From: an uncultured Alphaproteobacteria bacterium
Lineage (GTDB): Bacteria > Pseudomonadota > Alphaproteobacteria > Rhizobiales > Xanthobacteraceae
Direction: 5' to 3'
Assembly (NCBI GenBank): GCA_963724735.1
Contig: CAVRVX010000015.1
Location: 10,081 to 74,080, forward strand
DNA: 64,000 nt
In this document: positions 31,499 to 49,577 of the stretch, piece by piece
Position numbering within the stretch: position 1 is the stretch's first letter
How the letters are laid out: the number at the start of each line of letters is the position of its first letter
Program-made: the position numbers and the translations under genes
Notes under the pieces: generated by a model
Databases searched by the model: none
The model's input: only the letters and a program-made list of their open reading frames with translations
What the model was told of the DNA's origin: nothing

Positions 31499-31575
<77 letters not shown>

Positions 31576-33261: not shown

Positions 33262-33606
33262 TTACTTCGGCAGAGTCGGGACCATGAGATGGAACAGCTT
33301 CATCTCGGCGCCCCGATCGGCCGCGATCGTCGCCGTTTCGGCCGGTCCAAGATAGACGCCGGCGCCCTTGGCGACGTCGTAGATCTTGCCTTCCAGCTTG
33401 ATCGTGCCTTTGCCCTCCATCAGATAGACGAGCTGATGACGGTCGGAGGCATCGGGCGAAAACCGTTCGCCGGGCTTAAGCCAACGCAGCACGCCGCGCC
33501 CGTTCTTGGCTCCGCACAGGGCCTCGCTCAGGATATCGGTCACTTCGCCCTGCCCGGTCGAGGGCTGACGCGGCAGCTTCGCCGTTTCGATGAAAGTCAG
33601 CGACAT
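33262..33606 (-). CDS. Cupin-fold protein
   Basis: HQLVYLMEGKG...GAGVYLGP cupin barrel pattern with a degenerate metal site. Confidence 0.65.
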   Translation of the reverse strand: MSLTFIETAKLPRQPSTGQGEVTDILSEALCGAKNGRGVLRWLKPGERFSPDASDRHQLVYLMEGKGTIKLEGKIYDVAKGAGVYLGPAETATIAADRGAEMKLFHLMVPTLPK

Positions 33607-33632
33607 CGTCTCGCGCCCGTTCCCGGCATTGG

Positions 33633-34046
33633 TCAGGTCTGGACCCAGACGCGCCCGTCTCGCCGCTCCCAGCGCAGATCGTCGGGCGTGCCATCCAGGA
33701 TGGTCGTCTTGAACCGGTTCGGCGCCTGCCATTCGAAATAGAACAGGGGCTCGGTCGCGCGCAGGCGATGCCTCTCTTCCGCTGGAATGAACACGAGATC
33801 GCCCGGTCCGACTGCGCGCGCCCCCTCCTCCAATTCCACCGTCGCCTTGCCGTCGATGATGAAATAGAAGTGCTCGCAATTGGCGTGATAATGATAGGGC
33901 GACGACGCGCCCGCCTTGTAGTGCATCACGCCCGCCAGCATGTCGTCGATATGCGCGAGTTCCTTGTTGACGAAAAAGGTGCGTTCGCGCCCGGGCACGA
34001 CCGACACCAGCGTCGGCAGCTCGTCCTCCTTGAAGATATAGGCCAT
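33633..34046 (-). CDS. Cupin domain protein (intact metal site)
   Basis: PYHYHANCEHFYFIIDG and GDLVFIPAEERH. Confidence 0.85.
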   Translation of the reverse strand: MAYIFKEDELPTLVSVVPGRERTFFVNKELAHIDDMLAGVMHYKAGASSPYHYHANCEHFYFIIDGKATVELEEGARAVGPGDLVFIPAEERHRLRATEPLFYFEWQAPNRFKTTILDGTPDDLRWERRDGRVWVQT

Positions 34047-34093
34047 GGATTCCCTGCTCCCTTGAACGGTTCGTCTTGCCCGGCGAGACATCG

Positions 34094-35278
34094 TCAATCC
34101 GCCGGCATATTGCACTCTTTGTAATAGGCGTCCTTGTGGTCCTTGGTGATCACGCCGCGATTAGCCATGATCGGGCGGCCTTTCTCGTCCTTGACGATTT
34201 CAGTCAGGTAGTAGTTCTGGATCGGATAATGGTTGGTGTTGAAATGGAAGCCGGGCCGCACCGTATCGAACTTTACCGTTTCCAACGCCTTGCGAAACGC
34301 CTTTTTGTCTTCAACCTTGCCGCCGATCGAATCAAGCGCGGCGGCGATCAGGCGCGCGCCGTCGTAGGCCTGGGCTGCGTTTTCCGATGGCAGGCGGCCA
34401 TATTCGGCCTCGAAGTCGGCAATGAACTTCTTGCTTGCAGGATCGGTTAGCGTCTCGGCCCAGTAGACTGAGGCAAACGCGCCGAGCGCCGCATCGCCGA
34501 TCCCAGGGAGCACCGTCTGGTCGAGCGACGGCCCGGGGCCATAAAGCGGAATCTCCTCCTTCAGCCCCGCCTGCGCGTATTGGCGCACGAAATTGATGCC
34601 CATTCCGCCCGGATAGAAGAAGAAAACGCCGTCCGGTTTCTTCGCGCGCAGCTGTGCGATCTCGGCGGCATAGTCGAGCTGGCCGAAGCTCGTGTAGATC
34701 TCGTCGACGATCTCGCCTTTGTAGTAGCGCTTGAAGCCGCCGATGAAGTCCTTCCCCGCCGGATAGTTTGGCGCCATCAGATACATGCGCTTGACGCCCT
34801 TGTCCTGCACATGAATGCCCATCGCCTCCGCGGTGGAATCGTTCTGGTGCGACGTGGAGAAGAAGTGCGGATGGCATTGCCGTCCCGCCAACAGCGACGG
34901 CCCCGCATTCACATTGATGAGGAAGGCGCCGGAATCGAGCACCGGCTTGGCGAGCGCGAGCAGCACATTGGAGAAATTGATCCCGGTGACGATGTGCACG
35001 CGGTCGCGCTCCACCATCTTGTCTGCAAGCTGGCGGCCGACATCGGGCTTGGCCTGATCGTCGCCTTGAATCAATTCGACCGGGCGTCCGCCGAGCTTAT
35101 TGCCGACGCTCTTGAGGCCGAGTTTGAATCCGTCGAACAGTTCCTGTCCGAGACCGCCGGTGGGACCGGAAAAGGTCGAAATGAATCCGATCTTGACCGG
35201 TTGCTGCGCTCCAGCCGGCGCTGTAAGCGCCGCAACCAGTGCAACCGCGGAAATGGACGCGAAGATTTTGGCTTTCAA
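34094..35278 (-). CDS. ABC transporter substrate-binding protein, LIV/type I periplasmic class (aromatic-acid-binding-like)
   Basis: TTG start after GAGGAG, signal peptide, KIGFISTFSGP, DDQAKPD, GQLDYAAE and AQAYD. Confidence 0.88.
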   Translation of the reverse strand: MKAKIFASISAVALVAALTAPAGAQQPVKIGFISTFSGPTGGLGQELFDGFKLGLKSVGNKLGGRPVELIQGDDQAKPDVGRQLADKMVERDRVHIVTGINFSNVLLALAKPVLDSGAFLINVNAGPSLLAGRQCHPHFFSTSHQNDSTAEAMGIHVQDKGVKRMYLMAPNYPAGKDFIGGFKRYYKGEIVDEIYTSFGQLDYAAEIAQLRAKKPDGVFFFYPGGMGINFVRQYAQAGLKEEIPLYGPGPSLDQTVLPGIGDAALGAFASVYWAETLTDPASKKFIADFEAEYGRLPSENAAQAYDGARLIAAALDSIGGKVEDKKAFRKALETVKFDTVRPGFHFNTNHYPIQNYYLTEIVKDEKGRPIMANRGVITKDHKDAYYKECNMPAD

Positions 35279-35579
35279 TGTTTTCTCCTCATGCGTCGCC
35301 CTGGCCATTGCGCCGGCGATCCCGATCGACGGAACGCCGTGCGGCGCCAATCCATTCGCGCGCCCGCTCCCGAACCCGCTGCATTGGCTTTGAAAAAAAT
35401 GCTGCAACGAGTCTGATTGTCAATCGCGCCTTGACGATACGCGCTCGGACCGAACCATCCTTCGCAGCCGCGAGCAGACGCAATTCATCGCGGATTGGGA
35501 AAACGCGCGCATGAAGGCTGCGTGAATTCTCAGACTGCACCGTTGTCGGGGCCTGCCGACGCGGCAGGCGACCGCGACT

Positions 35580-36086
35580 TCAAATCGCATCGATCGAATT
35601 CGCCGCTTCGACTTGGCCCTGCAGCCGGATGAGGAATGCGAGCAGCGCCTTGCGTTCACTCGCCGAAAACCCCTCCAGCAGCTTCTTTTCGCGCGCGATT
35701 GCGAGCTTCACGATCTGGTCGTGGAGAGCGACGCCCCGGCGCGTCAGAGCGATGACCTGCCTACGCTGGTCGGCCGCGTCGGGCCTCACCTCGACCAGCC
35801 CGGCCTTTGCGAGGTCATGCACGCTGCGGCTGACCGCCGCCTTGTCCAATCCGGTCGCCGCGCAGATTCGCGCGGCGGAAATCCATGGCTCGGCCGCGAC
35901 CAGCGCCATGATGCGCCAATCGGTGATGCCGACGCCGAAACGCGGGCGATAGATCGCGGACGCGCTCGCGGAGATCTTGCCGGCGAGATAGGTGAGATAG
36001 GCCGGGATGTATTTGTCGAGATCCAGCGCATGCGGCGAGGCGCGCGCGTCGTCGGAGCCTCGGGGCGTGGCAGGTCGTTCGTTCAT
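35580..36086 (-). CDS. MarR family transcriptional regulator
   Basis: TDWRIMA, LDKAAVSRSV and DQRRQVIALT winged HTH; ATGA overlap with the amidohydrolase. Confidence 0.9.
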   Translation of the reverse strand: MNERPATPRGSDDARASPHALDLDKYIPAYLTYLAGKISASASAIYRPRFGVGITDWRIMALVAAEPWISAARICAATGLDKAAVSRSVHDLAKAGLVEVRPDAADQRRQVIALTRRGVALHDQIVKLAIAREKKLLEGFSASERKALLAFLIRLQGQVEAANSIDAI

Positions 36087-37366
36087 TGCTCAGACCCGCT
36101 CGGCGATAAGGGCGAATGAGAAATGTCGGGTTCGCCGGCTACACCGTCGGGCACGGACGCGAGTGCGAAGCCGGCGCGTTCATCCGCGTTCACCGCGACC
36201 CAGCATTCGCCGCGGAGCACGAAGCGGACCCTGCGCAGGGCGGCGGGATCGTCGAACGGCGAGGCGTCAAGCAGGATCAGATCGGCATCGTGGCCCGGCG
36301 CGATCCGCGCCGAGGCCATGCCCCACAACGCGCGCGGCCGGAGGGTGGCCGCCTGTAACACGGCGGCCATCGGGAGGCCGGCCCGCAGCAGGTGCAGGAG
36401 TTCGTCGACCAGCCCTGCCCCGTGCTCGACGCCCGGACTGCCGGCATCGGAGCCCGCAAGCACCGGAACGCCGAGATCATGCGCAAGCGCAAGATGTTTC
36501 GCATGGTCGTCGAGAATGCGGGAAAGATTTGCGACGATCGCCTCGCCCCAGCCGGCATGCCAGGGTTCGGTTCTCTGGAAATGCACGGGTGCGAAGGTCG
36601 GTACCCAGGCGATCTCCTTGTCCGCCATCTGCGCGAGGATATCCCGCGTCATGAAGTAGCCGTGCTCGATCGAGTCGACGCCCGCGGCGACCGCAACCGC
36701 AAGTCCGGCCGTTCCGCTGCAATGGGCGAAGGTCTTGCGACCGTGCGCTCGCGCTTCGGCGACGATCAGGCCCAGCTCGTCGACATCGAATTGCGGCGCG
36801 CCCTTGACGCAGGCTTCGGCGAAATCGACGATCCCGGTCAGGATGATCTTGATATCGTCGCTCCCGCGGCACAGTTCGGCGATGGCTGAACGAATGTCGG
36901 CAGCGCCGGCCACATCCTTGCCGATGAACGCGCCGTACCGCTTCGCCCGTTTGAGCGCCGCCCCGGGGGAGCGCAGCGCGATCGGAGCATCCGTCCGCTC
37001 GGCCAGTTCGTCGCGCAGGGCGTGGTTGACGCCATAGCTGTCGCCGGCGTCGCGCACCACCGTCACGCCCGCGCGCGTGCATTTGGCAAGATTGTCGCGC
37101 GCCGTCGCGAGCATGTCGGCGGGGGTAGCCGCGAGGCGGGCATTGCGTGCGCCCGCATCGCGCAGCGCCCCGTCAAGAAACATATGCGCATGCGCCTCGG
37201 CGAAACCCGGCATGAGAAAGCCGCCCGATATATTCGCGGTCGTCCGAGGCGCTGCGGCTTCGACCCGCGCGATCACGCCGTTGTCGATCGTAACCAGAAC
37301 GGGGCCGCGCCCGAGCGTCGTCTCGCCGTCGAAACACGCACCTGCCAGAATGCGCCGGATCGCCAT
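36083..37366 (-). CDS. Metal-dependent amidohydrolase
   Basis: MPGFAEAHAH, GVTVVRDAG, IKI, AHC, SIEHG and AGSDAG. Confidence 0.88.
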   Translation of the reverse strand: MAIRRILAGACFDGETTLGRGPVLVTIDNGVIARVEAAAPRTTANISGGFLMPGFAEAHAHMFLDGALRDAGARNARLAATPADMLATARDNLAKCTRAGVTVVRDAGDSYGVNHALRDELAERTDAPIALRSPGAALKRAKRYGAFIGKDVAGAADIRSAIAELCRGSDDIKIILTGIVDFAEACVKGAPQFDVDELGLIVAEARAHGRKTFAHCSGTAGLAVAVAAGVDSIEHGYFMTRDILAQMADKEIAWVPTFAPVHFQRTEPWHAGWGEAIVANLSRILDDHAKHLALAHDLGVPVLAGSDAGSPGVEHGAGLVDELLHLLRAGLPMAAVLQAATLRPRALWGMASARIAPGHDADLILLDASPFDDPAALRRVRFVLRGECWVAVNADERAGFALASVPDGVAGEPDISHSPLSPSGSEQ

Positions 37367-37454
37367 TGCCGGGTCCGCTCCGGAGTAGGCTCAACCGCAC
37401 GACCGAGCGTGTCTGTTCGCGGGACGCGCGGCGTCAGGGTCACGACATGGGTCG

Positions 37455-37507
37455 AGGATGCGACGGCTTCGTTGACATGTCAACGATTTTGATTTATGCT
37501 TGAACTA
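37455..37507. promoter_or_regulatory. Overlapping divergent sigma70 promoters built on the palindrome GTTGACATGTCAAC, plus a putative operator
   Basis: Plus strand TTGACA(37472)-N17-TATGCT; minus strand TTGACA(37483)-N17-CATCCT; TTGAACTA half-site at 37500-37507. Confidence 0.65.
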
Positions 37508-37547
37508 ATTCCTGTAAAGTCGCGGCTGTGCGGGGACAGAACGCGTT

Positions 37548-38960
37548 ATGGAAGCGCTGCGCCATTGGAGTGTGCGGCATGCGCGCGGACTGAAGCGCCT
37601 CTACGACGCCTTTTCCCGCCTCGCTCCCGTGCTTGCTCCCTTGATGCGACTGATCGGATCGGCGCAGACCGAACGCCTGCTCAAGCCGGTTGAGCGCGCC
37701 GCCAAGGGATTCTTGTTCGATTGCCGAATGTGCGGCCAGTGCGTGCTCTCGCTCACAGGCATGGCGTGCCCGATGAACTGCGCCAAGAACATGCGGAACG
37801 GGCCGTGCGGCGGCGTGCGGCCCGACGGCGGCTGCGAAGTCATTCCCACGATGCGCTGCGTGTGGGTGGAGGCGACCGACGGACTGCACCGTATCGCCAA
37901 CGGGGAAGGCGAGCGCTCGATGCTGGCGCCGGTCGACCATCGCCAGCAGAGTCGTTCGAGTTGGGTCAAGGTCATCGCCGGCGGGCTGCCGCCGCCGGCG
38001 ATGGAGCAAGCGCCGCCGCGCGCCGGCGCCGTGCATGGCTTCGAGCGCGCCTGCCGCTCCGGCCGCTTCGTCGTCACCGTGGAAGTCGCCCCGCCCGATT
38101 CCGCCGATCCGGCCGTGCTGGTCGCGCGCGCATCCCGGTTCCGCGACCGCGTCGACGCCATCAACATCACCGACGGCGCCGGCGGCAACTGTCACATGTC
38201 GAGCGTCGCGGCCTCGGCCGTGCTCGCCGCCAACGGGTTGACCCCGATCTGGCAGCTCGCCTGCCGCGACCGCAATCGGATTGCAATTCAAGGCGAGTTG
38301 CTCGGCGCGGCGGCGCTCGGCATCCGCAACGTGCTGTGTCTCACCGGCGACGATGTCAGCCAGGGCGACCAACCGGAAGCCAAGCCGGTGTTCGACCTCG
38401 ACGCGGTTTCCCTCCTGCGGGTCGCCCGCAACATGCGCGACCGCGGCGCCTTCGCCTCCGGCCGCAAGCTCGAGGCGCCGCCCGATCTGTTCCTCGGCGC
38501 GACGGTCAATCCGTTCGCGCCGCCGCAACGGGACCGCGTCGCCAATCTGGCGATGAAGATCGCGGCGGGCGCCCAGTTCATCCAGACGCAGTTCTGCTTC
38601 GACATCGACGCCTTTGCCGCGTTCATGCGCGAGGTGCGCGCACGCGAACTGCACAAGCGATGCTTCATCATCGCCGGCGTGGGCATTCTCTCGACCGCCA
38701 AGGCGCTGCGCTGGATGGCCGAGCATGTGCCGGGCGTCCATGTCCCGGAGCCGCTGCTCGCCCGCATCGGAGCCGCCGCCGATCAGCGGGCCGAAGGCAA
38801 GCGAGCGCTGATCGAGATCATGCGCCGTCTTGCCGAGATTGAGGGCGTTGCCGGCGTGCATGTGATGGGTCACAAGAACGAACAGGTGCTGGCCCAGGCT
38901 ATAGTCGAATCGGGATTGCGTCCCTCAACGGAGGTCCAGCCGCTTCGCGCGGAGGCTTGA
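37548..38960 (+). CDS. metF: Methylene-THF reductase with a fused N-terminal MetV-like Cys-rich domain (MetV-MetF fusion)
   Basis: N-terminal DCRMCGQC...CPMNCAK.MRNGPCGG...C...C. C-terminal MTHFR motifs EVAPP, NITD, CRDRN, LTGD and AQFIQTQ. Confidence 0.88.
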   Translation: MEALRHWSVRHARGLKRLYDAFSRLAPVLAPLMRLIGSAQTERLLKPVERAAKGFLFDCRMCGQCVLSLTGMACPMNCAKNMRNGPCGGVRPDGGCEVIPTMRCVWVEATDGLHRIANGEGERSMLAPVDHRQQSRSSWVKVIAGGLPPPAMEQAPPRAGAVHGFERACRSGRFVVTVEVAPPDSADPAVLVARASRFRDRVDAINITDGAGGNCHMSSVAASAVLAANGLTPIWQLACRDRNRIAIQGELLGAAALGIRNVLCLTGDDVSQGDQPEAKPVFDLDAVSLLRVARNMRDRGAFASGRKLEAPPDLFLGATVNPFAPPQRDRVANLAMKIAAGAQFIQTQFCFDIDAFAAFMREVRARELHKRCFIIAGVGILSTAKALRWMAEHVPGVHVPEPLLARIGAAADQRAEGKRALIEIMRRLAEIEGVAGVHVMGHKNEQVLAQAIVESGLRPSTEVQPLRAEA

Positions 38961-38988: not shown

Positions 38989-39651
38989 ATGAGCGAGATG
39001 ACAGCCCAGGAGAAGCAGCTCGTCGAGTGGCTCGCCGACATGAACGAGGATGAAGGCGTCGCGCTCGCCAAGCGCATGCTGCTCGAAGAGGGCGCCGACC
39101 CGATGCGCGTGCTCGATCTTTGCCGCACCGCCATGGACATGGTCGGCAAGCGCTTTGCGGAGGGCGAGTATTTTCTTCCTGAGCTGGTGCTCGCGGGCGA
39201 GATGCTGGACACCATTGGCGCGGTCGCCAAACCGTTAATCAAGCAGAGCGCAGGCGGCGAGCCGCAGCGGCTGGCCCGCGTGCTGATCGGCACTGTGCAC
39301 GGCGACCTGCACGATATCGGCAAGAACATCGTCACCTTCATGCTCGACATCAACGGCTTCGAGGTAAGGGACATCGGCGTCGACGTGCCGGCGGCGACCT
39401 TTATCGACGAAATCAACGATTTCAAGCCGCAGGTGGTCGGACTCTCCGGCTTCCTGACGCTCGCCTTCGATTCGATGAAGGAGACGATTGACGCGATCGC
39501 GAGCGCCGGCCTGCGCAACAACATGAAGATCATGATCGGCGGCGGCCAGATCGACGAAACGGTGCGCGCCTACACCGGCGCCGACGCGTTCGGGACGAAC
39601 GCGGTCGACGCCGTGACCCTGTGCAAGGGTTGGGCGGGGGTCGCCGCATGA
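38989..39651 (+). CDS. Standalone corrinoid (cobalamin-binding) protein
   Basis: B12 cap domain plus GTVHGDLHDIGKN (DxHxxG), VGLSG and IGGG. Confidence 0.93.
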   Translation: MSEMTAQEKQLVEWLADMNEDEGVALAKRMLLEEGADPMRVLDLCRTAMDMVGKRFAEGEYFLPELVLAGEMLDTIGAVAKPLIKQSAGGEPQRLARVLIGTVHGDLHDIGKNIVTFMLDINGFEVRDIGVDVPAATFIDEINDFKPQVVGLSGFLTLAFDSMKETIDAIASAGLRNNMKIMIGGGQIDETVRAYTGADAFGTNAVDAVTLCKGWAGVAA

Positions 39652-40919
39652 ACGCGCCCGCGACCTATACGCAAACCGCGGCGGCGAAAGCAGCCTATGA
39701 CGCGCGTTGGCAACGCGTCATGGATTGCGTCGCGCTCAAGCAGCCGGACCGCATGCCCACCGCAATGGTCGCGACCTTCTGGCTCGCGCGCTATGGCGGC
39801 ATCAGCTATCGCCAGCTGATGTACGACTACGAGAAGACCAAGGAGATCATCGAGCGGGCGATCCTCGAATTCGAGCCCGATGCGCCGGGACCGATGGTGC
39901 TCGGAATCGTCAGCGGCCCGTCGCTCGAAGCGGTCGGCTATAAGCAGTTGCAATGGCCTGGTCACGGCGTGCGCGATGATCAGCCCTATCAGTACCTCGA
40001 CCGCGAATACATGATGGCGGACGAGTACGAGGAGTTCCTGTTCGACCCGACCGGCTTCTATCTGCAGAAATATCTGCCGCGCGTCGGCGAAGCTTTCGAA
40101 GGCGTCGAGGAACTCGCCTATCTCCCCGGCCTCCAATACTTTCGACTGATCGGCGCTGTCCGCACCTTCTCGCGCCCGCGCGTGCGCAAGGCGCTGGAAG
40201 CGCTGATGAGGGCCGGCGAGGAGGTCGAGCGATGGGGTCGGCACCATCAGGATTTCGTCGAGCGCATGGCCGCGCACGGCTTCCCCATGGGTTATATCAG
40301 CACCTCGATTTCGCCCTATGACTTGATCGCCGATTACTTCCGCGGCGCCACCGGCATGATGAAGGACCTGTTCCGCAACAAGGACAAGCTACTGGCGCTG
40401 CTCGACAAGGCGGCGACCTTCCTCATCCGCCAAGCAAGCCAAGCGTTCAGGGCTTCCGGCAATCCGGTCGTGTTCATCCCGATCCATTGGGCGCCGGACG
40501 CTTTCATGTCGCAGAAGCAGTTCGAGACCTTCTGGTGGCCGTCGTTCCGCAAGATGCTGCTCGGCCTGATCGAAAGCGGCATCATTCCGATGCCGCTGTG
40601 GGAGGCCGATTGCACCAAGCGGCTGGAGACGATCCGCGACATCCCGCCCGGCAAGTGCATCTACTGGTTCGAGCGCACCGACATGGTCCGCGCCTTCGAA
40701 GTGCTGGGCGACGTGGTGGCGCTGCGCGGCAACGTCTCGCCGTCGCTACTCACTACGGGAACGCCCGATGAGGTCGATGCCGCGGTGCGCCATCTTGCCG
40801 AGAACGTGTTCCACAAGGGCGGCAAGCTGATACTCGACGGCGCGTTCGGCATTCCCGACGAGACGCCGGTGGAGAACGTCCGCGCGATGTTCGCCGCTGC
40901 GCGCAAGTACGCAAGTTGA
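39648..40919 (+). CDS. UroD-fold substrate:corrinoid methyltransferase (MT1, aryl-methyl-ether type)
   Basis: KQPDRMP, WPG.G, EYMMADEY, PYD.IAD.FRG, FIPIH, FMSQKQFE.FWWP, GNV and GG.LILD; ATGA-coupled to the corrinoid protein gene. Confidence 0.75.
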   Translation: MNAPATYTQTAAAKAAYDARWQRVMDCVALKQPDRMPTAMVATFWLARYGGISYRQLMYDYEKTKEIIERAILEFEPDAPGPMVLGIVSGPSLEAVGYKQLQWPGHGVRDDQPYQYLDREYMMADEYEEFLFDPTGFYLQKYLPRVGEAFEGVEELAYLPGLQYFRLIGAVRTFSRPRVRKALEALMRAGEEVERWGRHHQDFVERMAAHGFPMGYISTSISPYDLIADYFRGATGMMKDLFRNKDKLLALLDKAATFLIRQASQAFRASGNPVVFIPIHWAPDAFMSQKQFETFWWPSFRKMLLGLIESGIIPMPLWEADCTKRLETIRDIPPGKCIYWFERTDMVRAFEVLGDVVALRGNVSPSLLTTGTPDEVDAAVRHLAENVFHKGGKLILDGAFGIPDETPVENVRAMFAAARKYAS

Positions 40920-40929: not shown

Positions 40930-41613
40930 ATGCGAAGCGCGGCCGTAAGGGCATTGCTGCGCGAGGCCGCCGAAGCGGAGGAACGCGACGTGCGACCGCG
41001 GCGGCCCAGCCGCTTCCTCCGCGCGGCGCATGACATGGCGGAGCACGACGCTCTACTCGCACCCGCTCTCCGCTTCGCGATCGTCGATCTCGAACGGCCG
41101 GCCGCGGAGACCCTCTACGCGGGCGGCCTCGAGCTTTACGCGCCGCGCCTTCTGCCGGCCGCCGGCGAGTTGACCGCGCTCGCCTGCGGGGTCGCGACCA
41201 TCGGCGCCCGCCTGGAGCAGCGGGTCACCGTCCTGTTCGCGGAGCGCCGCGCGTCCCTCGCCCTCGCCCTCGACGCTCTCGGCAATCGCTGCCTCCATAT
41301 CTTGTCGCGCTGCCTCCAGGACCGCATGCTCGTCAGCACTCGCGATCGCGGGCTCGTTCTTTCTGGGGAGCTGCGCCCGGGCGACCCCGGACTTGCGCTC
41401 GATGCGCAGACGACCGTGCTGCGCCTCGCCGACGCCGCCGCGATCGGCGTGCAGGCGACGCACGGGCTTGCGCTGCATCCGCTCAAATCGATCTCGATGA
41501 TGCTGGGCGCAGGCCGCGGCCTGCCCCCCGCCCGTTGGTCGCGCTGCGACGATTGCCGCTCCCGCCCGCGCTGCAAGCTCGTCGCGCACCACCCGGAGAT
41601 GGCGAGCGCCTGA
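40930..41613 (+). CDS. Standalone methionine-synthase reactivation-domain-like protein
   Basis: VATIGARLEQ, ALDALG, PG...L..Q, PLKSIS...G and a C-terminal CDDC...C pattern. Confidence 0.65.
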   Translation: MRSAAVRALLREAAEAEERDVRPRRPSRFLRAAHDMAEHDALLAPALRFAIVDLERPAAETLYAGGLELYAPRLLPAAGELTALACGVATIGARLEQRVTVLFAERRASLALALDALGNRCLHILSRCLQDRMLVSTRDRGLVLSGELRPGDPGLALDAQTTVLRLADAAAIGVQATHGLALHPLKSISMMLGAGRGLPPARWSRCDDCRSRPRCKLVAHHPEMASA

Positions 41614-41633: not shown

Positions 41634-43475
41634 ATGCCGCATCGCCCGCCCGCCTCGTCGACCGCCACGCATGCGCTGCGCTTTCCGCAATTCGAGCGGC
41701 AGATCGTCGCCCATGCCGAGGAGACCGTTTTTCACTCCGCGCGGCGCAGCGGTGTGCGCATCATTGGGGCCTGCGGCGGGCGCGGCGTCTGCGGGACCTG
41801 CAAGGTTCTGGTCGCCGAAGGTCTCGTGGAGCCCATCGAGCGCCGCCCGTTGCGGCCGTCCGACCCCAGGGATGACCCGCGTGCGCGCTGGGTGCGCGCA
41901 TGCCAAGTCGTCCCGCGTTCCGACTGCACCCTTGAGGTCGATCGGCGTTCGCTCGCGCCGATCGTGCGCGCGGATATCGATTCCGATGAGACCGGCGAGA
42001 CGCTGCCGCTCGACCCTGTGGTGATCAGCATCGATGTTTCGGTCCCGCCCCCCTCTCTCACCGACCCCCGTTCCGACGCGGACCACGTCGCACGCGCATC
42101 GCCCCTGCTGCTGACCGGCATCGATCTCGGCGCCGCGCGCGAACTGCCAAGCCTGTTGCGCGCTGGAGATTGGTCGGTCCGCCTGCATGCGCGCGACGGC
42201 GAAGCGATCGCCTTCGCACCGACCGGGCGGCCGACGCTCGGTCTTGCCGTCGATTTCGGCACCACCAATGTCGCTGGTTTTCTCATCGATCTTGCGATGG
42301 GAACGCGCCTTGCAAGCCTCGGGATCGAGAACCCCCAGGTCGGCTGGGGCGCCGACGTGATCAGCCGTATCAATCATGCCATTCGCGACGAGGCCGCCGC
42401 CGACGAGCTGCGCGCAGCCGCAGTCGCCGCCATCAACGCGCTCGCGCATGACCTCTCCCAGGCGGCGGGAGCGCGGCCAGCGGACATCGTCGATCTGGCT
42501 GTATGCGGCAACACGGCGATGCATCATCTGCTGCTCGGCTTGCCGGTGCGCCAGCTCGGCCGCGCGCCCTTCGTCGCTGCGCTCAGCGAGGCGATCGACG
42601 CGAAGGCGCGCGACCTGGGCATTGCGGCCGCGGCCGGCGCCTATCTCCATGTTGCAGCGAATATTGGCGGCTTTGTCGGCGGCGACCACGTCGCGGCGCT
42701 GCTCGCGACCGAGCCGTCATGGGCGAACGCAGCAGCAACGCTCGTGATGGATATCGGCACCAACACCGAGATCTCCCTCATTCATCGCGATGAGATCGTC
42801 ACCGCGTCGTGTCCGTCAGGACCAGCGCTCGAGGGCGGCCATTTATCTTGCGGCATGCGCGCGGCGGACGGCGCGATCGAACGCGTCGCAATTGCGCCGG
42901 ACGGAATCGACATAGAGGTGATCGGCGGAAAGAAACCGGTCGGCCTGTGCGGCTCCGGCGTGCTCGACGTGGTTGCGGGCCTGCGTTGCGCTGGCCTGCT
43001 CGACAGCGGCGGCCGGCTTCAGGCTGCTCACCCGAATATCTCCGCGATCAAGGGCAAGCGCGTATTCGCGCTCGCGCCCGAGGTCCATGTCACGCAGGCG
43101 GATATCCGGGCCGTGCAGCTCGCCAAGGCCGCGATCCGCACCGGGATCGACCTCTTGCTGCGCATGGCAAGCCTCGACGAAAACGCGATCGAGCGCGTCG
43201 TCATCGCCGGCGCATTCGGAAGCTATATCGATGTGCGCAGCGCCGTCGCGGTCGGGTTGCTTCCCGACCTGCCGGCGGAGCGCTTTTCCCAGGTCGGCAA
43301 CGCGGCGGGTCTCGGCGTGCGCCAGATGCTGACCTCGCGGCAGGCGCGGGCGCGCGCGCGCGCGCTTGCCGGCCGCTGCCGTTATGTCGAACTCAGCACC
43401 CGCACCGATTTCCAAAAAACCTTCATGCACAATATCGGCTTCAGGAAACCCGTCGAGGCGCGGAGAGCATCGTGA
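41634..43475 (+). CDS. RACE/RamA-type ATP-dependent reductive activator of corrinoid enzymes (2Fe-2S + ASKHA)
   Basis: ACGGRGVCGTC...RACQ ferredoxin motif; VDFGTT, GADVISRI, CGNTAM, DIGTNTE, GPALEG, CGSG, AGAFG and GNAA. Confidence 0.92.
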   Translation: MPHRPPASSTATHALRFPQFERQIVAHAEETVFHSARRSGVRIIGACGGRGVCGTCKVLVAEGLVEPIERRPLRPSDPRDDPRARWVRACQVVPRSDCTLEVDRRSLAPIVRADIDSDETGETLPLDPVVISIDVSVPPPSLTDPRSDADHVARASPLLLTGIDLGAARELPSLLRAGDWSVRLHARDGEAIAFAPTGRPTLGLAVDFGTTNVAGFLIDLAMGTRLASLGIENPQVGWGADVISRINHAIRDEAAADELRAAAVAAINALAHDLSQAAGARPADIVDLAVCGNTAMHHLLLGLPVRQLGRAPFVAALSEAIDAKARDLGIAAAAGAYLHVAANIGGFVGGDHVAALLATEPSWANAAATLVMDIGTNTEISLIHRDEIVTASCPSGPALEGGHLSCGMRAADGAIERVAIAPDGIDIEVIGGKKPVGLCGSGVLDVVAGLRCAGLLDSGGRLQAAHPNISAIKGKRVFALAPEVHVTQADIRAVQLAKAAIRTGIDLLLRMASLDENAIERVVIAGAFGSYIDVRSAVAVGLLPDLPAERFSQVGNAAGLGVRQMLTSRQARARARALAGRCRYVELSTRTDFQKTFMHNIGFRKPVEARRAS

Positions 43476-44362
43476 CGCAATCGGACAAATTCGACCTCAT
43501 CGTCGTCGGTGACCGCATCAATCCCGGCTTCAAGAGCGTGCGGACGCTGGTCGACAACAATGACATTCCCGGCATTCAGGCGCTCGCCATCAAGCAGGTC
43601 GAGGCGGGCGCGCGCTATCTCGACGTCACCATCGGACCGCGCGCGATCGACGACTCCGCGTTCTTGACGGAGGTGATCCGCGCCATCCAGGGAGTCGTCA
43701 AGGCGCCGCTCTGCTTCGATTTCCCGACCGCGGCGGTGCAGGCCGTATGCCTCGGCGCCTATGACCGCGCCCGCGCGGACGGCGCGCTTCCGCTCGTCAA
43801 CTCGATCACCGAGCATCGCTGGGATCTGATGGACCTGTACCGTCCGCTCGGGCCCTTCAAGGTCATCGTCATGGCTTCCGAGCGCGTCGATGACGAGGTC
43901 GCCAAGCCGAACAAGACCGCCGCGGAGATTTTCACCACCGCGCGCCGCGCGGCGCTCCGGCTCAAGTCGGATTACGGGATGACGATGGACGATATCTTCA
44001 TCGACATCTCCATCAGCGCGGTGGTGGCCGACACGACCGGACTGCACCGCGCCACCCTCGCCGCAATCCGCGACATCCGCGCCGACCCCGAGCTCGCGGG
44101 CATCCACATCATGGGCGGGCTCACCAATATCGGCGGGCAACTTCCGGCCAAGGCGGCCAACGGCTCCGACCTGAAGCTCGGGCTCGAATGCGCTTTCCTC
44201 ACGCTTGCCGTGCCGCTCGGCTTCGATACGGTCCTGGCGACGCCCTGGCGCGCCTACCGGCCGCTGCCGGACGACGATTACATCCTCTGCGCGTACAAAA
44301 ACTTCCTCGAGCACACGGGCAGCAACGCGCTGCGCGCCGTGCGCAAGTTCTACAAGGCGTGA
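43472..44362 (+). CDS. Pterin-binding corrinoid:tetrahydrofolate methyltransferase (MT2, AcsE/MtvA/CmuB-like)
   Basis: VGDRINP, GARYLDV, LVNS, IFID and GGLTNI form a DHPS-like TIM barrel; GTGA overlap with the RACE gene. Confidence 0.8.
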   Translation: MTQSDKFDLIVVGDRINPGFKSVRTLVDNNDIPGIQALAIKQVEAGARYLDVTIGPRAIDDSAFLTEVIRAIQGVVKAPLCFDFPTAAVQAVCLGAYDRARADGALPLVNSITEHRWDLMDLYRPLGPFKVIVMASERVDDEVAKPNKTAAEIFTTARRAALRLKSDYGMTMDDIFIDISISAVVADTTGLHRATLAAIRDIRADPELAGIHIMGGLTNIGGQLPAKAANGSDLKLGLECAFLTLAVPLGFDTVLATPWRAYRPLPDDDYILCAYKNFLEHTGSNALRAVRKFYKA

Positions 44363-44390: not shown

Positions 44391-44441
44391 CGCGCAACCC
44401 CCTCCCCAACCCTCCCCGCTTGCGGGGGAGGGAGTTGCGCG
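44391..44441. repeat. REP-like extragenic palindrome at the end of the methyltransferase operon
   Basis: cgcgcaac...ccctccccgc-tt-gcgggggaggg...gttgcgcg, a nested hairpin of the CCCTCCCC/GGGGAGGG type. Confidence 0.65.
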
Positions 44442-44545
44442 TGAGCGCGACGGGTGGGGGCAAAGCTGTGTGCACTTTTCAACCGCTCTGGTATCGCGCG
44501 AGCGGACGCCCCAGATCGAAAACGCGCCAGGGCCGCGCGCGGTAT

Positions 44546-44559
44546 TTGACATCGATCAA
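44546..44559. promoter_or_regulatory. FNR/FixK-like box upstream of the ABC transporter operon
   Basis: TTGAC-ATCG-ATCAA, one mismatch to TTGAT-N4-ATCAA. Confidence 0.55.
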
Positions 44560-44586
44560 CGACGTTCGTTCTCGCGCTCGTGAAAA

Positions 44587-44604
44587 TAGTTTAAATTTGA
44601 ACTA
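44587..44604. promoter_or_regulatory. AT-rich near-palindrome; putative MarR operator
   Basis: TAGTTTAAATTTGAACTA; shares TTGAACTA with 37500-37507. Confidence 0.55.
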
Positions 44605-44817
44605 GTCTCGTCTCTAGGTCGGCGGCCGGGGTGCAATCGATCGGGAGCGTCATGACGCCGCGTACCGGCATGGCATCACCCGCGAGCCGCCGGCATCGAA
44701 ACATCTTGGAGAGCCCTATTGATTTCACTCGCGGGCGGCGCGACTGAATCGTCCCGACAACGGCGCCGGACGCGAGCGCGACGTCGTCAACCGGAAAGCC
44801 GAAGCAGGGAGGAAGGC

Positions 44818-45990
44818 ATGGCAAGGCTGCTACTCGCCGCGGCGTTCGCGGCAGTTCTGATAGCGTCGGCGGCGGCTCAGGAGCCCATCAAGATCGGATT
44901 CATCTCGACCTTCTCGGGCCCCAGCGGCGGGCTGGGCCAGGAGCTTCTCGACGGCTTCAAGCTGGGCCTGAAGAAACTCGACAACAAGCTGGGCGGGCGG
45001 CCGGTCGAATTGATCCAGGGCGACGACCAGGCGAAGCCCGATGTCGGACGCCAGGTCGCCGACAAGATGATCGAGCGCGACCGCGTGCCGATTCTCACCG
45101 GCATCAACTTCTCGAACGTGATGCTGGCGGTGGCCAAGCCCGCACTCGACGCCGGCGTGTTCGTGATCAGCCTCAATGCCGGGCCCTCGCAATATGCCGG
45201 CGCGCAATGCCATCCGCACTACTTCACCGCCTCGTTCCAGAACGACACGGCGCCCGAGGCGATGGGAATTTACATGCAGAGCAAGGGCATCAAGCGCGTC
45301 TACCTGATGGCGCCGAATTATCCGGCGGGAAAAGACTTCCTCGCCGGCTTCAAACGCTACTTCAAGGGCGACATCGTCGACGAGGTCTATACCGGCTTCG
45401 GCCAGCTCGACTACGCCGCCGAGATCGCCCAGTTGCGCGACAAGAAGCCGGACGCGGTGTTCTTCTTCTATCCCGGCGGAATGGGCATCAACTTCGTTAA
45501 GCAATATTCGCAGGCCGGGTTGAAGAAAGACATCCCGCTCTACGGACCGTCGTTCTCGCTCGACCAGACCGTCCTGCCGGCGATGGGCGATGCGGCGGTC
45601 GGCGCCTTCGCCTCGACATTCTGGACCGAAGGCTTCGACAACCCCGCAAGCAAGACCTTCGCCGCCGATTTCGAGACCGAGTACGGCCGCATTCCCTCGC
45701 CGAACGCGGCGCAGGCCTACGACACGGCCTTCATCATCGATGCCGCGCTCAGGGCGATCGGCGGCAAGATCGAGGACAAGGCGGCGTTCCAGAAGGCGTT
45801 GGAGAACGTCAAATTCGACTCGGTGCGCGGCAACTTCAAATTCAACAAGAACCATTATCCCATCCAGGATTTCTACCTGGCCGAAATCGAAAAGGATCAA
45901 AAGGGCCGGCCGGTGATGGTGAAGCGCAGCCTGATCGTGCGCGACCACGCGGACGCCTACGCCAAAGACTGCAAGATGCCGGCGGGTTGA
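44818..45990 (+). CDS. ABC transporter substrate-binding protein, paralog of 34094..35278
   Basis: GGGAGGA RBS and signal peptide; KIGFISTFSGP, DDQAKPDVGRQ, GINFSNV and GQLDYAAEIAQLR shared with the paralog. Confidence 0.9.
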   Translation: MARLLLAAAFAAVLIASAAAQEPIKIGFISTFSGPSGGLGQELLDGFKLGLKKLDNKLGGRPVELIQGDDQAKPDVGRQVADKMIERDRVPILTGINFSNVMLAVAKPALDAGVFVISLNAGPSQYAGAQCHPHYFTASFQNDTAPEAMGIYMQSKGIKRVYLMAPNYPAGKDFLAGFKRYFKGDIVDEVYTGFGQLDYAAEIAQLRDKKPDAVFFFYPGGMGINFVKQYSQAGLKKDIPLYGPSFSLDQTVLPAMGDAAVGAFASTFWTEGFDNPASKTFAADFETEYGRIPSPNAAQAYDTAFIIDAALRAIGGKIEDKAAFQKALENVKFDSVRGNFKFNKNHYPIQDFYLAEIEKDQKGRPVMVKRSLIVRDHADAYAKDCKMPAG

Positions 45991-46193
45991 GCGACGAGAA
46001 TTCCCGAGGCGAGAGAAACGCGACGCGCAGGAGCGGCGGCGAGCAAGACGATGGTGAGCGTTCCGCAACGCCTGCGCAGTCCGCGCGTCGCCTTGAGCCG
46101 ATCGCATTGCCTGCGGCATAACGAGCTGCGTGAAGGGGCGTCGCGCGCCGCTCGAAGAAACGGCGCTCCCAGATCGAAGCCGCGGAGCGGGGA

Positions 46194-47066: not shown

Positions 47067-47068
47067 CC

Positions 47069-48106
47069 ATGCGCGACATCGCCACACCGACCAAGACGGA
47101 AAGCGGCCAGCGGCTCGCGCGCCTTCTCCCGATCGCGATCCTGATCGGCTTGCTTGCTTTGGTGCCGCCGATCGCCACCGCGATCGACGATCCGTTTCTG
47201 ATCAAGATATTCGCGCGCGTGATCGTGTTCGCCATCGCCGCGGTGGCGCTCAACTTCATTCTCGGCTTCGGCGATCTGGTCAGCCTGCTGCAGGCCGGCT
47301 TTATCGGCGTCGGCGGCTACACCGTCGCCATTCTCGCCTCGCACGAGTTCAATGCCGAACCGATCGCACTCTGGCCGTTCACGCTTGACGGCACGACCAA
47401 TCTCGCCATCTCGCTCCCGCTCGGAGCGCTCGCCGCGGCAGTGGTCGCGGTCTTGACCGGGCTCGTCTCGCTGCGCACCAGCGGCGCCTATTTCATCATG
47501 ATCACGCTCGCCTTCAATCAGATGCTCTACTACTTCTTCGTCGCCCTGCAGCGATATGGCGGCGAGGACGGTTTGCAGATTCTCGGCAATCTGCATCTCG
47601 CTGGCGTCGACGTCGCAAGACGCGTTCCGTTCTATTATCTGTGCCTCGTCACGCTGGCGCTGACGCTGCTGTTTCTCGATCGCCTGGTCGCAAGCCGCTT
47701 CGGCATGGTGATCCGCGCGCTGGCGCAAAACGAGCGCCGCGTGGTCGCGCTCGGGATTCCGCCGCTGCGTTACAAGCTGCTCGCCTTCGTCATCACCGGC
47801 ACGCTCGGCGGACTCGCCGGCGGGCTGCTCGCGGCCGGGCAGCAATTCATCAGCCCCGCCGATATGGCTTGGGCGCGTTCCGGCGAAATCGTGGTGATGG
47901 CGGTGCTGGGCGGGCTTTCGACCGTGTGGGGGCCGGTCGTCGGCGCCGCCGTGTTCCTTGTGCTCGAGCTCGTGCTTTCCTCCTTCACGATCAGCTGGCA
48001 GCTCCCTTTCGGCATTCTGATCATCGTGATGATCACCTTCCTGCGCGGCGGCCTGGCGGACCTGTGGGGCGTCGTCACGCGGCGGAAATGGCCGGGGGCG
48101 GGCTGA
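47069..48106 (+). CDS. Branched-chain amino acid-type ABC permease (LivM-like)
   Basis: GAYFIMITLAFNQM, GGEDG, NERR and VLGG...GPVVGA. Confidence 0.88.
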   Translation: MRDIATPTKTESGQRLARLLPIAILIGLLALVPPIATAIDDPFLIKIFARVIVFAIAAVALNFILGFGDLVSLLQAGFIGVGGYTVAILASHEFNAEPIALWPFTLDGTTNLAISLPLGALAAAVVAVLTGLVSLRTSGAYFIMITLAFNQMLYYFFVALQRYGGEDGLQILGNLHLAGVDVARRVPFYYLCLVTLALTLLFLDRLVASRFGMVIRALAQNERRVVALGIPPLRYKLLAFVITGTLGGLAGGLLAAGQQFISPADMAWARSGEIVVMAVLGGLSTVWGPVVGAAVFLVLELVLSSFTISWQLPFGILIIVMITFLRGGLADLWGVVTRRKWPGAG

Positions 48107-48855
48107 TGGGCGATATTCTGTTGGAAGTGTCCGGGCTGACCAAGCGGTTCGGGGGCCTCATTGCCACCAACGATCTCAATCTCGCGGTCCAGCGCGGCGA
48201 GACGCACGCGATCATCGGGCCGAACGGCGCGGGCAAGACCACGCTGATCGCGCAGCTGCAAGGCGAGCTGCGGTCCGACGAAGGGTCGATCCGGTTCAAC
48301 GGGCGGGACATTGCGCGCGAGCCCGCCTATCGGCGCGCCGGGCTCGGCATCGCCCGCTCGTTCCAGATCACCTCGATCTTTCCGAAATTTTCCGCCCTCG
48401 CCAATGTCGCGCTCGCTGTCCAGGCGCAGGCCGGCCACAGCTTCCGATTTTTTCGCCGCGCGGGCGGCGATCCGGCGCTGATCGAGCCGGCGCGGCGGGC
48501 CATCGCGACCGTCGGCCTCGCGGATCGTGCGGATACCGAGGCCGAGAATTTATCGCACGGCGAACGCCGACAGTTGGAAATCGCGATGGCGCTCGCCATG
48601 CGGCCGAGCCTGCTCCTGCTCGACGAGCCGATGGCGGGGATGAGCCGGCGCGACGGCGCCCGCATGACGCGGCTGCTCGCCGAGCTCAAGCGCGCCTACA
48701 CCATCGTGCTGGTGGAGCACGACATGGACACCGTGTTCTCGCTCGCCGACCGGATCAGCGTGCTGGTGGCCGGCCGCACCATCGCGACCGGCCCGCCCGA
48801 CGAGATCCGCGCCAATGCGGACGTCAAAGCCGCCTATCTCGGGCATCGCACGTAG
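48106..48855 (+). CDS. ABC ATP-binding protein (LivG-like)
   Basis: GPNGAGKT, LSHGE and LLDEPMAG. Confidence 0.92.
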   Translation: MGDILLEVSGLTKRFGGLIATNDLNLAVQRGETHAIIGPNGAGKTTLIAQLQGELRSDEGSIRFNGRDIAREPAYRRAGLGIARSFQITSIFPKFSALANVALAVQAQAGHSFRFFRRAGGDPALIEPARRAIATVGLADRADTEAENLSHGERRQLEIAMALAMRPSLLLLDEPMAGMSRRDGARMTRLLAELKRAYTIVLVEHDMDTVFSLADRISVLVAGRTIATGPPDEIRANADVKAAYLGHRT

Positions 48856-48875
48856 ATCGCACACAGGAAGCGCGC

Positions 48876-49577
48876 ATGCTGCTCGACGTCCGCGATATCG
48901 CGAGCTCCTACGGTTTGAGTCAGGTGCTGTTCGACGTCTCCTTCGTCGTCGGCGACGGCGAGGTCGTGACGCTGATGGGGCGCAACGGAATGGGCAAGAC
49001 GACCACCGTGCGTTCGCTGATGGGATTGGTGCGCCCGCATGCCGGCGAAATCCGTTTCCGCGGCGAACGGGTGGACGGATCGCCGCCGCACCGCATCGCG
49101 CGGCTCGGCATCGGGCTCGTCCCGGAAGGCCGGCATATTTTCCCCAATCTCACCGTGCGCGAGAATCTCGTCATGGCTGAGCGACGGCGCGGCGGCGCCG
49201 ACGCGTGGACGGTCGAGCGCGTGTTCGAGATGTTTCCCCGCCTCGCCGAGCGCGTCGCCAACCGCGGCAACCATCTCTCCGGCGGCGAGCAGCAGATGTT
49301 GGCGATCGGCCGCGCGTTGATGACCAACCCCTCGCTGCTCGTGCTCGACGAGGCGACCGAGGGCCTTGCCCCGAAAATCCGCGAGGAAATCTGGGCCAAG
49401 CTGCAGGACCTGAAGAGCACGGGGCTTGCGATCATCGTGATCGACAAGGACATAGACGCGTTGTGCGCGTTCGCCGACCGCCATTACATCCTGGAAAAGG
49501 GCGAGGTGATCTGGACCGGCTCGACCGCCGAGCTGGTCGCCAATAAGGAGCTGCAAGACCGCTATCTCGGCGTCTGA
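48876..49577 (+). CDS. ABC ATP-binding protein (LivF-like)
   Basis: GRNGMGKT, LSGGEQQM and LDEATEGL. Confidence 0.92.
   Translation: MLLDVRDIASSYGLSQVLFDVSFVVGDGEVVTLMGRNGMGKTTTVRSLMGLVRPHAGEIRFRGERVDGSPPHRIARLGIGLVPEGRHIFPNLTVRENLVMAERRRGGADAWTVERVFEMFPRLAERVANRGNHLSGGEQQMLAIGRALMTNPSLLVLDEATEGLAPKIREEIWAKLQDLKSTGLAIIVIDKDIDALCAFADRHYILEKGEVIWTGSTAELVANKELQDRYLGV

Follow-up and report, generated by a model that had tools for sequence, protein, structure and literature searches.

A 64,000-nucleotide stretch of DNA from an uncultured alphaproteobacterium of the Xanthobacteraceae, called the window here in its full length, carries between positions 33262 and 49577 a cluster of genes that we read as encoding an O2-independent, cobalamin-dependent demethylase for an imported, methoxylated benzoate-type acid, with a probability of about 0.55 for this reading. 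That the cassette at its centre is a catabolic corrinoid system passing methyl groups from a substrate to tetrahydrofolate (THF) is highly probable. Gene calls were confirmed by Pfam and NCBIfam domain searches; raw lists of open reading frames (ORFs) are crowded with antisense frames because of the high G+C content of the region (61-68%). Every gene named in a preliminary description of this DNA was found in its place, by domain searches or, for a protein resembling the reactivation domain of MetH, by its predicted structure. All parts of the four-component corrinoid methyltransferase system proposed there, namely methyltransferase I (MT1), corrinoid protein, methyltransferase II (MT2) and activase, are present together with a methylene-THF reductase, as judged by Pfam and NCBIfam.

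The corrinoid methyltransferase cassette

Six genes on the forward strand make up the methyltransferase operon, with a spacing that runs from a 4-base overlap up to 28 bp. The first (37548..38960) encodes a 470-aa MetV-MetF fusion, a methylene-THF reductase with a Cys-rich N-terminal domain (DUF5981 83 bits, MTHFR 130 bits) whose MetV part has nine Cys within residues 57-104, and the second (38989..39651) a 220-aa corrinoid (B12-binding) carrier protein with the domains B12-binding_2 (PF02607) and B12-binding (PF02310) and an intact DxHxxG motif, GDLHDIGKN. The stop codon of the carrier gene is overlapped by the ATG of the MT1 gene (39648..40919) as ATGA at 39648, and MT1 itself is a UroD-fold protein (423 aa, URO-D 78 bits) predicted to act between substrate and corrinoid protein. 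Behind the gene for the MetH activation-domain-like protein (40930..41613) lies that of a 613-aa ATP-dependent reductive activase of the RACo/RACE type (41634..43475; Fer2, RACo_linker, Raco_middle and RACo_C_ter, the last at 251 bits), which by Pfam carries a 2Fe-2S domain and an ASKHA domain and is the single RACo in the whole genome. From the coordinates, the GTG of the last gene (43472..44362) overlaps the RACo stop; its product is a 296-aa pterin-binding MT2 (methyl-corrinoid:THF) that scores 26 bits against the 25.5-bit cut-off of Pterin_bind and 103 bits with PRK07535. The best PDB matches of MT2 are MeTr (2yci) and then 4o0q, 4o1e and 4o1f, which we take to be the O-demethylase MT2 of Desulfitobacterium hafniense. 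No cobalamin riboswitch was found in the window.

The product of the fourth gene, 227 aa long with a C-terminal CxxCx5C, has no match in Pfam even at E<=10 and none in NCBIfam, and a PDB profile search gave only marginal matches, to TM0269 (1j6r, E=0.1) and to a MetH. When its AlphaFold model (pLDDT 87, pTM 0.82) was compared with solved structures by Foldseek, all 19 significant matches were MetH activation domains, the best being 1j6r (E=4.7e-10, TM 0.63/0.71), and the fold earlier assigned to this protein proved to be right. Invariant in an alignment of 20 sequences of the family are GELRxGDPGL, PLKSxS and the C-terminal WSRCxxCx5C, whose three invariant cysteines suggest a metal site. At the position of RxxxGY, presumably the AdoMet-site motif of MetH, the family reads RPGDPG, with Asp where MetH has Tyr.

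Relatives of MT1 number more than 1,200 in a collection of 5.8 billion proteins, and the best 120 of these, none of which falls below 69% identity, come among others from Aromatoleum anaerobium, A. bremense, Azoarcus sp. PA01, Xanthobacteraceae and Ramlibacter. Scanning a single genome for each species gave 236 MT1-encoding stretches, from which 80 loci were kept, with Rhodoplanes, Pseudolabrys, Azospirillum, Sterolibacterium, Sulfuritalea, Thauera phenylacetica, Ramlibacter, Candidatus Thiodiazotropha, Steroidobacteraceae and a Terriglobia metagenome-assembled genome (MAG) among their hosts. Genes were tallied by tblastn of the proteins of the window against 81 loci, many of them on truncated contigs. 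The corrinoid protein was detected in 66 of the 81, the activation-like protein and RACo in 65 each, the pterin-binding MT2 in 61, MetVF in 45, and an amidohydrolase, which in the window is encoded in a divergent arm upstream of MetVF, in 43. Lower counts were obtained for MarR (23, with LysR or GntR in others), the binding proteins (12-13), the permeases and ATPases (4-11) and the cupins (1-2, only in the closest relatives, L006 and L085).

In most Betaproteobacteria the genes for MetVF, corrinoid protein, MT1, activation-like protein, RACo, MT2 and amidohydrolase follow each other on a single strand, and where the amidohydrolase gene is present it usually lies directly 3' of the pterin methyltransferase gene; it is missing from many complete Xanthobacteraceae-type loci (L011-L013, L017, L023, L027). 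These tallies and the gene order in related loci indicate a core cassette of six or seven genes, to which transporter, regulator and cupins appear to be host-specific additions, and across the 81 loci the transporter and cupins are not conserved together with the cassette. Because the identical core order recurs in most of these loci, the arrangement must be judged, on sequence comparison, to be far beyond chance. The survey of synteny called for in the preliminary description found the cassette kept across Alpha-, Beta- and Gammaproteobacteria, and it places the amidohydrolase, which had been treated as a peripheral neighbour, among the conserved members.

Further genes adjoin the cassette in some lineages. 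In the Xanthobacteraceae loci L017, L027 and L070 these are subunits of a 2-oxoacid:ferredoxin oxidoreductase and a GltD-like Fe-S flavoprotein (~2.4-7.0 kb), and in the betaproteobacterial loci L053 and L067 a fused IOR-like enzyme (~4.4-7.9 kb); in any of these RACo or MetVF may have a low-potential electron partner. Four loci (L051, L054, L058, L079) combine the cassette with FolD and a second type of MarR, and L054 and L058 have a GntR-family gene as well. Their hosts, Candidatus Thiodiazotropha and Sedimenticolaceae, are sulfur-oxidising symbionts and sediment bacteria, an unexpected group.

Placement of the MT1 family

That MT1 differs from HemE, as the first reading of this DNA had held, is borne out by the HemE equivalog model (TIGR01464), in which it reached 32 bits against a cut-off of 303 bits, and by a separate HemE-type gene on another contig of the genome, and the identification of MT1 as a true HemE was rejected. 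The host HemE-type gene itself (C35:34068-35077, 226 and 133 bits) is in two pieces, 34068-34376 and 34388-35077, that lie in different frames, which looks like a frameshift or an assembly error. Membership of the MtaA/CmuA family was likewise rejected (44 bits against the 235-bit cut-off of TIGR01463). The HxC...C zinc site of the MtaA type is missing in the MT1 family, which has H280-W-A at residues 280-282 instead; in the alignment, C322 is the sole invariant Cys in the barrel part, and many invariant charged residues are retained.

The AlphaFold model of MT1 (pLDDT 85) has the UroD/MtaA barrel fold, and by sequence the closest solved structure is CdmB (9rui, E=1.3e-37), with HemE entries reaching only 3.7e-6. 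CdmB is the chloromethane:corrinoid methyltransferase of Acetobacterium dehalogenans; it has a hydrophobic channel, is inactive on methoxy-aromatics, and was grouped by the authors of that work with the O-demethylase MT1s MtoB, MtvB, OdmB and VdmB (PMC13222342). No proteobacterial sequences are found in the tree and supplements of the same paper.

An exhaustive HMMER search with MT1 against 1.84 billion representatives gave 252 clusters at E<=1e-30, and the MT1-like clusters among those listed are mostly full-length proteins of 410-450 aa that are 28-45% identical. A maximum-likelihood tree of 116 rows was calculated from 26 family members, 86 representatives, three Cdm-clade sequences taken from Supplementary Data 2 of the CdmB paper (PMC13222342) and the host HemE. 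In this tree the MT1 family of the window forms a single tight clade (SH-aLRT 99-100), and MT1 is nested among 115 MT1-like rows with HemE as a very distant outgroup. The Cdm references, together with Asgard and Bathyarchaeia representatives, form a separate clade with 100% support that is ~3 substitutions per site apart from that of the window, and the tree thus rejects MT1 as a chloromethane Cdm orthologue although CdmB is its nearest solved structure. Named neighbours outside the family are a Xanthomonadales MAG (45%) and a cluster with a Desulfomonile tiedjei protein (39%). Taken together, the model scores, the CdmB match, the fold and the tree indicate that MT1 is an MT1-type enzyme from a donor-side radiation of ~420-450-aa proteins and neither a decarboxylase nor a Cdm orthologue.

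The MT1 gene is not always single. Duplicated pairs of MT1 and activation-like genes occur in L021 (5960-7576, 8567-10567) and L065, and stand-alone MT1 paralogues lie beside a VanA-like gene and a binding-protein gene in L028, L030 (Sterolibacterium) and L083. These duplicates and paralogues recall the acetogens, in which several MT1s with different substrates share one carrier.

Substrate, host genome and proposed route

On balance, a methoxy-aromatic acid is the best-supported guess for the substrate, because the binding proteins have matches of benzoate type and because O-demethylases of the VanA/DdmC type lie beside the cassette. Neighbouring ORFs of all loci were filtered by GC3 minus GC2 and clustered, and representatives were scanned for domains; the gene calls in related loci contain some antisense errors, of which the tblastn tallies are independent. 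A Rieske oxygenase with a VanA_C domain was found near the cassette or near stand-alone MT1 paralogues in 15 loci, usually directly upstream of MetVF or beside the paralogues, and its best solved relative is the dicamba O-demethylase DdmC (1.5e-48). Also recurrent were a VanB-like reductase (7 loci), aryl-acid adenylate/CoA ligases (7 loci; 577 bits with the DHB-AMP ligase model, which is below its cut-off), FolD (6 loci) and regulators of the LysR, GntR or MarR type. The adjacency of an O2-dependent methoxybenzoate demethylase and a corrinoid MT1 suggests that the two serve one task with and without oxygen. In the loci of Azoarcus sp. PA01 and Aromatoleum anaerobium, LysR and TRAP (DctP) binding-protein genes stand in place of MarR and the ABC system, and the TRAP (DctP) gene implies a carboxylate substrate.

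In the window, the cassette is followed on the same strand by genes for a LIV-type ABC transporter, comprising a periplasmic binding protein (44719..45990; Peripla_BP_6 279 bits), two permeases (46194-47066 and 47066-48106; BPD_transp_2 119 and 116 bits) and two ATPases (48103-48855, ABC_tran with BCA_ABC_TP_C, and 48876-49577, ABC_tran). The genes and their order are as first described; a 356-bp gap follows the pterin methyltransferase gene, and the transporter is probably a separate transcription unit. A second LIV-type periplasmic binding protein (34094..35407, reverse strand; Peripla_BP_6 269 bits) is encoded in the divergent arm, and the two are 74% identical to each other. The best PDB match of both is 4evq (1.4e-54 for the first and 3e-52 for the second), followed by 4zpj, 4ey3, 4evs and 4f06; we take 4evq, 4ey3, 4evs and 4f06 (not 4zpj) to be the benzoate-derivative binders RPA0668, RPB2270, RPA0985 and RPD1586 of R. 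palustris. RPA0668 and RPA0985 bind benzoate, 4-hydroxybenzoate and salicylate (PMC3223731).

The host genome (4.67 Mb in 43 contigs, 92% complete), whose closest cassette relatives are labelled Rhodoplanes (88-89%), has a complete class I (Thauera-type) benzoyl-CoA reductase pathway by profile searches. One block encodes BcrCBAD, the dienoyl-CoA hydratase Dch, Had and Oah, all above curated cut-offs, together with a ferredoxin and a 2-oxoacid:acceptor oxidoreductase. The presence of this pathway indicates that the host uses oxygen-sensitive aromatic chemistry and is no plain aerobe, and the earlier picture of an anaerobe-type system misplaced in an aerobic lineage is not supported. Facultatively anaerobic degraders of aromatics, among them Aromatoleum, Thauera, Sterolibacterium and Sulfuritalea, commonly have the cassette. 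The host genome also encodes a PcaGH-type intradiol dioxygenase pair, and no VanA_C protein was found there. Two labels for the host were dropped, that of a denitrifier for want of a NarG, NirS or NapA equivalog and that of a Rhodoplanes-like phototroph because no photosynthetic reaction-centre genes were found. Two paralogous molybdopterin oxidoreductases of the DMSO-reductase superfamily (C18:70134-72875 and C13:33039-35780, ~913 aa) reached no equivalog model, and one of them lies ~15 kb from the benzoyl-CoA reductase block.

For oxidation of the methyl group, MetVF, FolD, Fhs and formate dehydrogenase provide what appears from the encoded enzymes to be a complete route. FolD and Fhs of the host were confirmed by HMM and formate dehydrogenases are present; on one contig (C37:294742-301100) Fhs (897 bits) lies ~2 kb from the alpha subunit of an NAD-type formate dehydrogenase (712 bits), which marks the pair as a predicted compact module from formyl-THF to CO2. 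The presence of CbiC makes B12 synthesis plausible in this host. A full-length MetH-sized B12-binding frame occurs elsewhere than in the cassette, so that methionine synthesis probably does not depend on the cassette and a role in that pathway is unlikely.

The divergent arm, on the reverse strand, was recovered by Pfam with all the genes earlier ascribed to it: the amidohydrolase (36083..37366; Amidohydro_1 77 bits), a MarR-family regulator (35580..36086; MarR_2 49 bits), the second binding protein and two small cupins, one of up to 160 aa (33633..34115; Cupin_2 53 bits against a 27-bit cut-off) and one of 114 aa (33262..33606; AraC_binding 28 bits, weak Cupin_2). The smaller cupin lies in an ORF of 205 codons (33262-33879) of which the last 114 codons are the real part. 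A frame at 32931-33257, considered as the second cupin, was rejected as junk, the true second cupin being 33633-34115. In the amidohydrolase, the metal ligands H59, H61, K173, H215, H235 and D307 are invariant in 20 homologues and give the pattern of the binuclear subtype (cog1228-like), HxH, carboxylated Lys, His, His and Asp. Among solved structures it comes closest to ochratoxin-type amide hydrolases and to Xaa-Pro or Arg carboxypeptidases, and it adjoins FolD in L051, L054 and L079; either amide-linked conjugates or a folate intermediate such as 10-formyl-THF could be its substrate.

Between the two arms, the divergent promoter region contains the 14-bp palindrome GTTGACATGTCAAC (37471..37484), a candidate MarR operator, and it is overlapped by the only sigma-70-like promoter found in 33000-50200 (TTGACA-17-TATGCT, 37472-37500). 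In 10 related loci the palindrome core TTGACATGTCAA is again present upstream of MetVF, and in most of these a MarR gene adjoins MetVF. An AT-rich word is common to both promoter regions, as GCTTGAACTAATTCC upstream of MetVF (37490-37505) and as ATTTGAACTAGTCTC upstream of the transporter (~44590-44605), and the transporter promoter region also has a looser palindrome, TTGACATCGATCAA. Directly left of the cluster, at window positions 28000-32000, the G+C content is 55-60% as against ~65%; this stretch holds a GmrSD-like gene (28337-30037), a DsbA-like gene (30581-31249) and a tRNA-Met(CAT) (31499-31575) and may mark the edge of an island. A gene for a 317-aa CHAD-domain protein (31634-32587, 93 bits), with no evident link to the cassette, separates the tRNA from the cupins.

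In the route that we propose, the LIV-type ABC transporter would import the acid with the help of its two binding proteins, the UroD-fold MT1 would transfer the O-methyl group to the Co(I) of the corrinoid protein, and the pterin-binding MT2 would pass it on to THF. The MetV-MetF fusion would oxidise methyl-THF to methylene-THF, and FolD, Fhs and formate dehydrogenase, whose genes lie in other parts of the genome, would take the C1 unit to CO2 or into biosynthesis. RACo would re-reduce oxidised Co(II) at the expense of ATP, a repair in which the MetH-activation-like Cys protein would assist. The hydroxybenzoate product would enter the benzoyl-CoA pathway without O2 or protocatechuate ring cleavage with O2, and MarR, probably by binding the promoter palindrome, would govern both divergent arms. 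Observed directly are the gene content, the folds, the conservation of the parts as a unit, their aromatic-acid context and host pathways able to take up both products; we infer which way the methyl group flows, what class of substrate is used, what the amidohydrolase, the cupins and the activation-like protein do, and the regulation by MarR through the palindrome.

Several points weigh against a demethylase for methoxylated benzoates. The tree takes in none of MtvB, OdmB, VdmB and MtoB, the characterised O-demethylase MT1s, and the characterised relative that was compared, CdmB, uses chloromethane, with the MT1 family of the window in a separate clade. The transporter, and hence the argument from the binding proteins, is conserved in only about 10-13 of the 81 loci, and the conserved amidohydrolase is without a role in known O-demethylase systems. 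No NarG, NirS or NapA equivalog that would account for anaerobic electron acceptance was found in the host genome.

We consider it rather unlikely that the same machinery, working in the same direction, takes its methyl group from another donor, be it a halomethane, a methylthio compound (methylmercaptopropionate, methanethiol) or a carboxylated N-methyl compound. The closest solved relative of MT1 is indeed the chloromethane enzyme CdmB, but the MT1 family of the window is a well-supported clade apart from Cdm and has many invariant charged residues as against the hydrophobic channel of CdmB. UroD-fold MT1s are known for methylthiols as well as for halomethanes; the thiol zinc motif HxC of the MtaA type is missing here, with H-W-A in its place. 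Most cassette loci are without a transporter within 10 kb, as expected of a diffusible substrate, although the transporters, where present, are of a carboxylate- or benzoate-binding type. The amidohydrolase would suggest an amide or a nitrogen-containing substrate. Against another donor stand the O-demethylases of the VanA/DdmC type and the aryl-CoA ligases that recur beside the cassette.

It is improbable, though the amidohydrolase speaks for it, that the substrate is a methoxylated aromatic acid conjugated through an amide bond, for instance an N-aroyl amino acid of the hippurate or vanilloyl-glycine type, with this enzyme freeing the acid or the amino acid before or after demethylation. The amidohydrolase belongs to the operon in 43 of the 81 loci with its binuclear metal site intact, and yet many complete Xanthobacteraceae-type loci do without it. 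Its solved relatives cleave aroyl-amino-acid amides (the ochratoxin A hydrolases) and C-terminal amino acids; its position beside FolD in three loci fits a folate-side role, for example the hydrolysis of 10-formyl-THF, equally well. Transporters of the LIV type would fit compounds that contain amino acids, but the binding proteins resemble binders of free benzoate.

Very improbable is a reversed flow, in which a split methionine-synthase-like machine would have MetVF make methyl-THF, the pterin enzyme load the corrinoid protein and the UroD-fold enzyme methylate a thiol or phenol: the MtgC/MtgD module of Ruegeria is bidirectional (PMC12478193), UroD-fold MtaA enzymes and MetE methylate thiols and a MetH activation-like domain belongs to the cassette, but the MetH-sized frame elsewhere in the genome, the lack of an HxC zinc-thiolate motif in MT1, its place in the donor-side radiation and not with MtaA, and the regulators, transporters, FolD, VanA-type neighbours and aryl-CoA ligases, which all point to catabolism, speak against it.

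Significance and relation to known systems

Lignin-derived monomers enter anoxic degradation through the removal of their methoxy groups. To our knowledge, enzymes for this anoxic step have been assigned only in strict anaerobes (acetogens, Desulfitobacterium and some archaea), and we know of none that accounts for the anoxic growth of nitrate-reducing and other facultatively anaerobic Proteobacteria on vanillate-type acids. A puzzling case is R. palustris, whose use of syringate under anaerobic conditions requires the oxygenase genes vanAB (PMC6974649). The cassette could offer an explanation for the attack of facultatively anaerobic soil bacteria on lignin-derived compounds in the absence of oxygen, and the question is made directly testable by cultured carriers such as Aromatoleum anaerobium, A. 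bremense, Azoarcus sp. PA01, Azospirillum spp. and Thauera phenylacetica. We suggest, tentatively and at less than even odds, that the cassette is the long-missing O2-independent aryl O-demethylase of facultatively anaerobic Proteobacteria, with two fixed accessories and often forming an O2-switchable pair with a VanA-type oxygenase. As parts of this same tentative proposal, the MetH-activation-fold CxxCx5C protein would help to keep the corrinoid protein active under trace O2, and the amidohydrolase would open amide-linked aromatic conjugates or replace PurU in the folate C1 branch, both being accessories not known from the anaerobe systems. If the proposal is true, methoxyl carbon would have a further sink in soil and groundwater, lignin valorisation could draw on genetically tractable hosts for demethylases that work without oxygen, and a new accessory factor for corrinoid reactivation would be indicated.

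Full-text literature searches aimed at the cassette found no published description of it. What appears to be new, from the comparison of genes, is the distinct MT1 clade, the three fixed accessory genes and the range of facultatively anaerobic hosts. Demethylation that depends on B12 and feeds a dedicated MetF is not in itself new to Proteobacteria: MtgBCD with RamA, DUF1638 and MetF2 was demonstrated experimentally to carry out B12-dependent demethylation of glycine betaine in aerobic Alphaproteobacteria (PMC12478193). MtgBCD is, like the cassette, a B12-dependent system from methyl substrate to THF; its activase is of the RamA/RACo type, and a MetF paralogue is dedicated to the oxidation of methyl-THF. 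Its MT1 is of the MttB family, whereas the cassette has a UroD-fold MT1, a MetV-fused MetF and the MetH-activation-fold protein. MtgBCD is also a split methionine synthase; the present host has its separate MetH-sized frame, so no dual role is implied. Neither MttB (PF06253) nor DUF1638 (PF07796) was found in the host genome, and a betaine system of the MtgBCD type was rejected on this ground.

Type 1 mlp clusters likewise combine UroD-superfamily methyltransferases with a corrinoid protein and a RACE activase, but they have no THF methyltransferase, contain two or three SCMT-like Mlps and are confined to obligate anaerobes (Kountz and Balskus, PMC10418091). The cassette has one MT1, a pterin-binding MT2 and MetVF, and it was not assigned to these clusters because a THF methyltransferase is present. 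The alphaproteobacterial chloromethane system CmuAB with metF2, folD and purU (Methylobacterium, Hyphomicrobium) shares with the cassette the corrinoid-dependent transfer of methyl groups to THF and dedicated genes for folate C1 oxidation; CmuA is a fusion of an MtaA-like and a corrinoid domain, whereas the parts are separate here and RACo is present. The job proposed here, O-demethylation of vanillate-type acids, is done by LigM/DesA with MetF and LigH in Sphingobium lignivorans SYK-6 and by the Rieske enzyme VanAB, and in the LigM route methyl-THF is oxidised by a dedicated MTHFR, as we propose for the cassette. LigM, however, is a GcvT-fold enzyme independent of B12 and VanAB needs O2, and neither comes with a corrinoid protein or an activase.

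CdmBCA of A. dehalogenans (PMC13222342) resembles the cassette in the logic of MT1, corrinoid protein and MT2, and CdmB has a similar length and N-terminal extension. In the alignment CdmB is without the H280, E319 and C322 that are invariant in the MT1 family of the window, and the genomic context here is one of transporters and aromatic-acid genes and not of a gas substrate. The O-demethylases MtvABC of Moorella, Odm and Vdm of A. dehalogenans, those of D. hafniense and MtoABCD of Methermicoccus have the same set of a UroD-superfamily MT1, a small corrinoid protein and an ATP-dependent activase of the RACE/RACo type, with an MT2 of the pterin type in the bacterial systems, as here; in all of them the methyl group ends on a reduced pterin. 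In contrast to these strict anaerobes, the hosts of the cassette are facultatively anaerobic Proteobacteria and their MT1 is a separate clade; the cassette adds the fused MetV-MetF, the MetH-activation-like Cys protein and usually the amidohydrolase, often has an O2-dependent VanA-type demethylase as its partner, and would deliver its methyl group to oxidation instead of feeding it to acetyl-CoA synthase.

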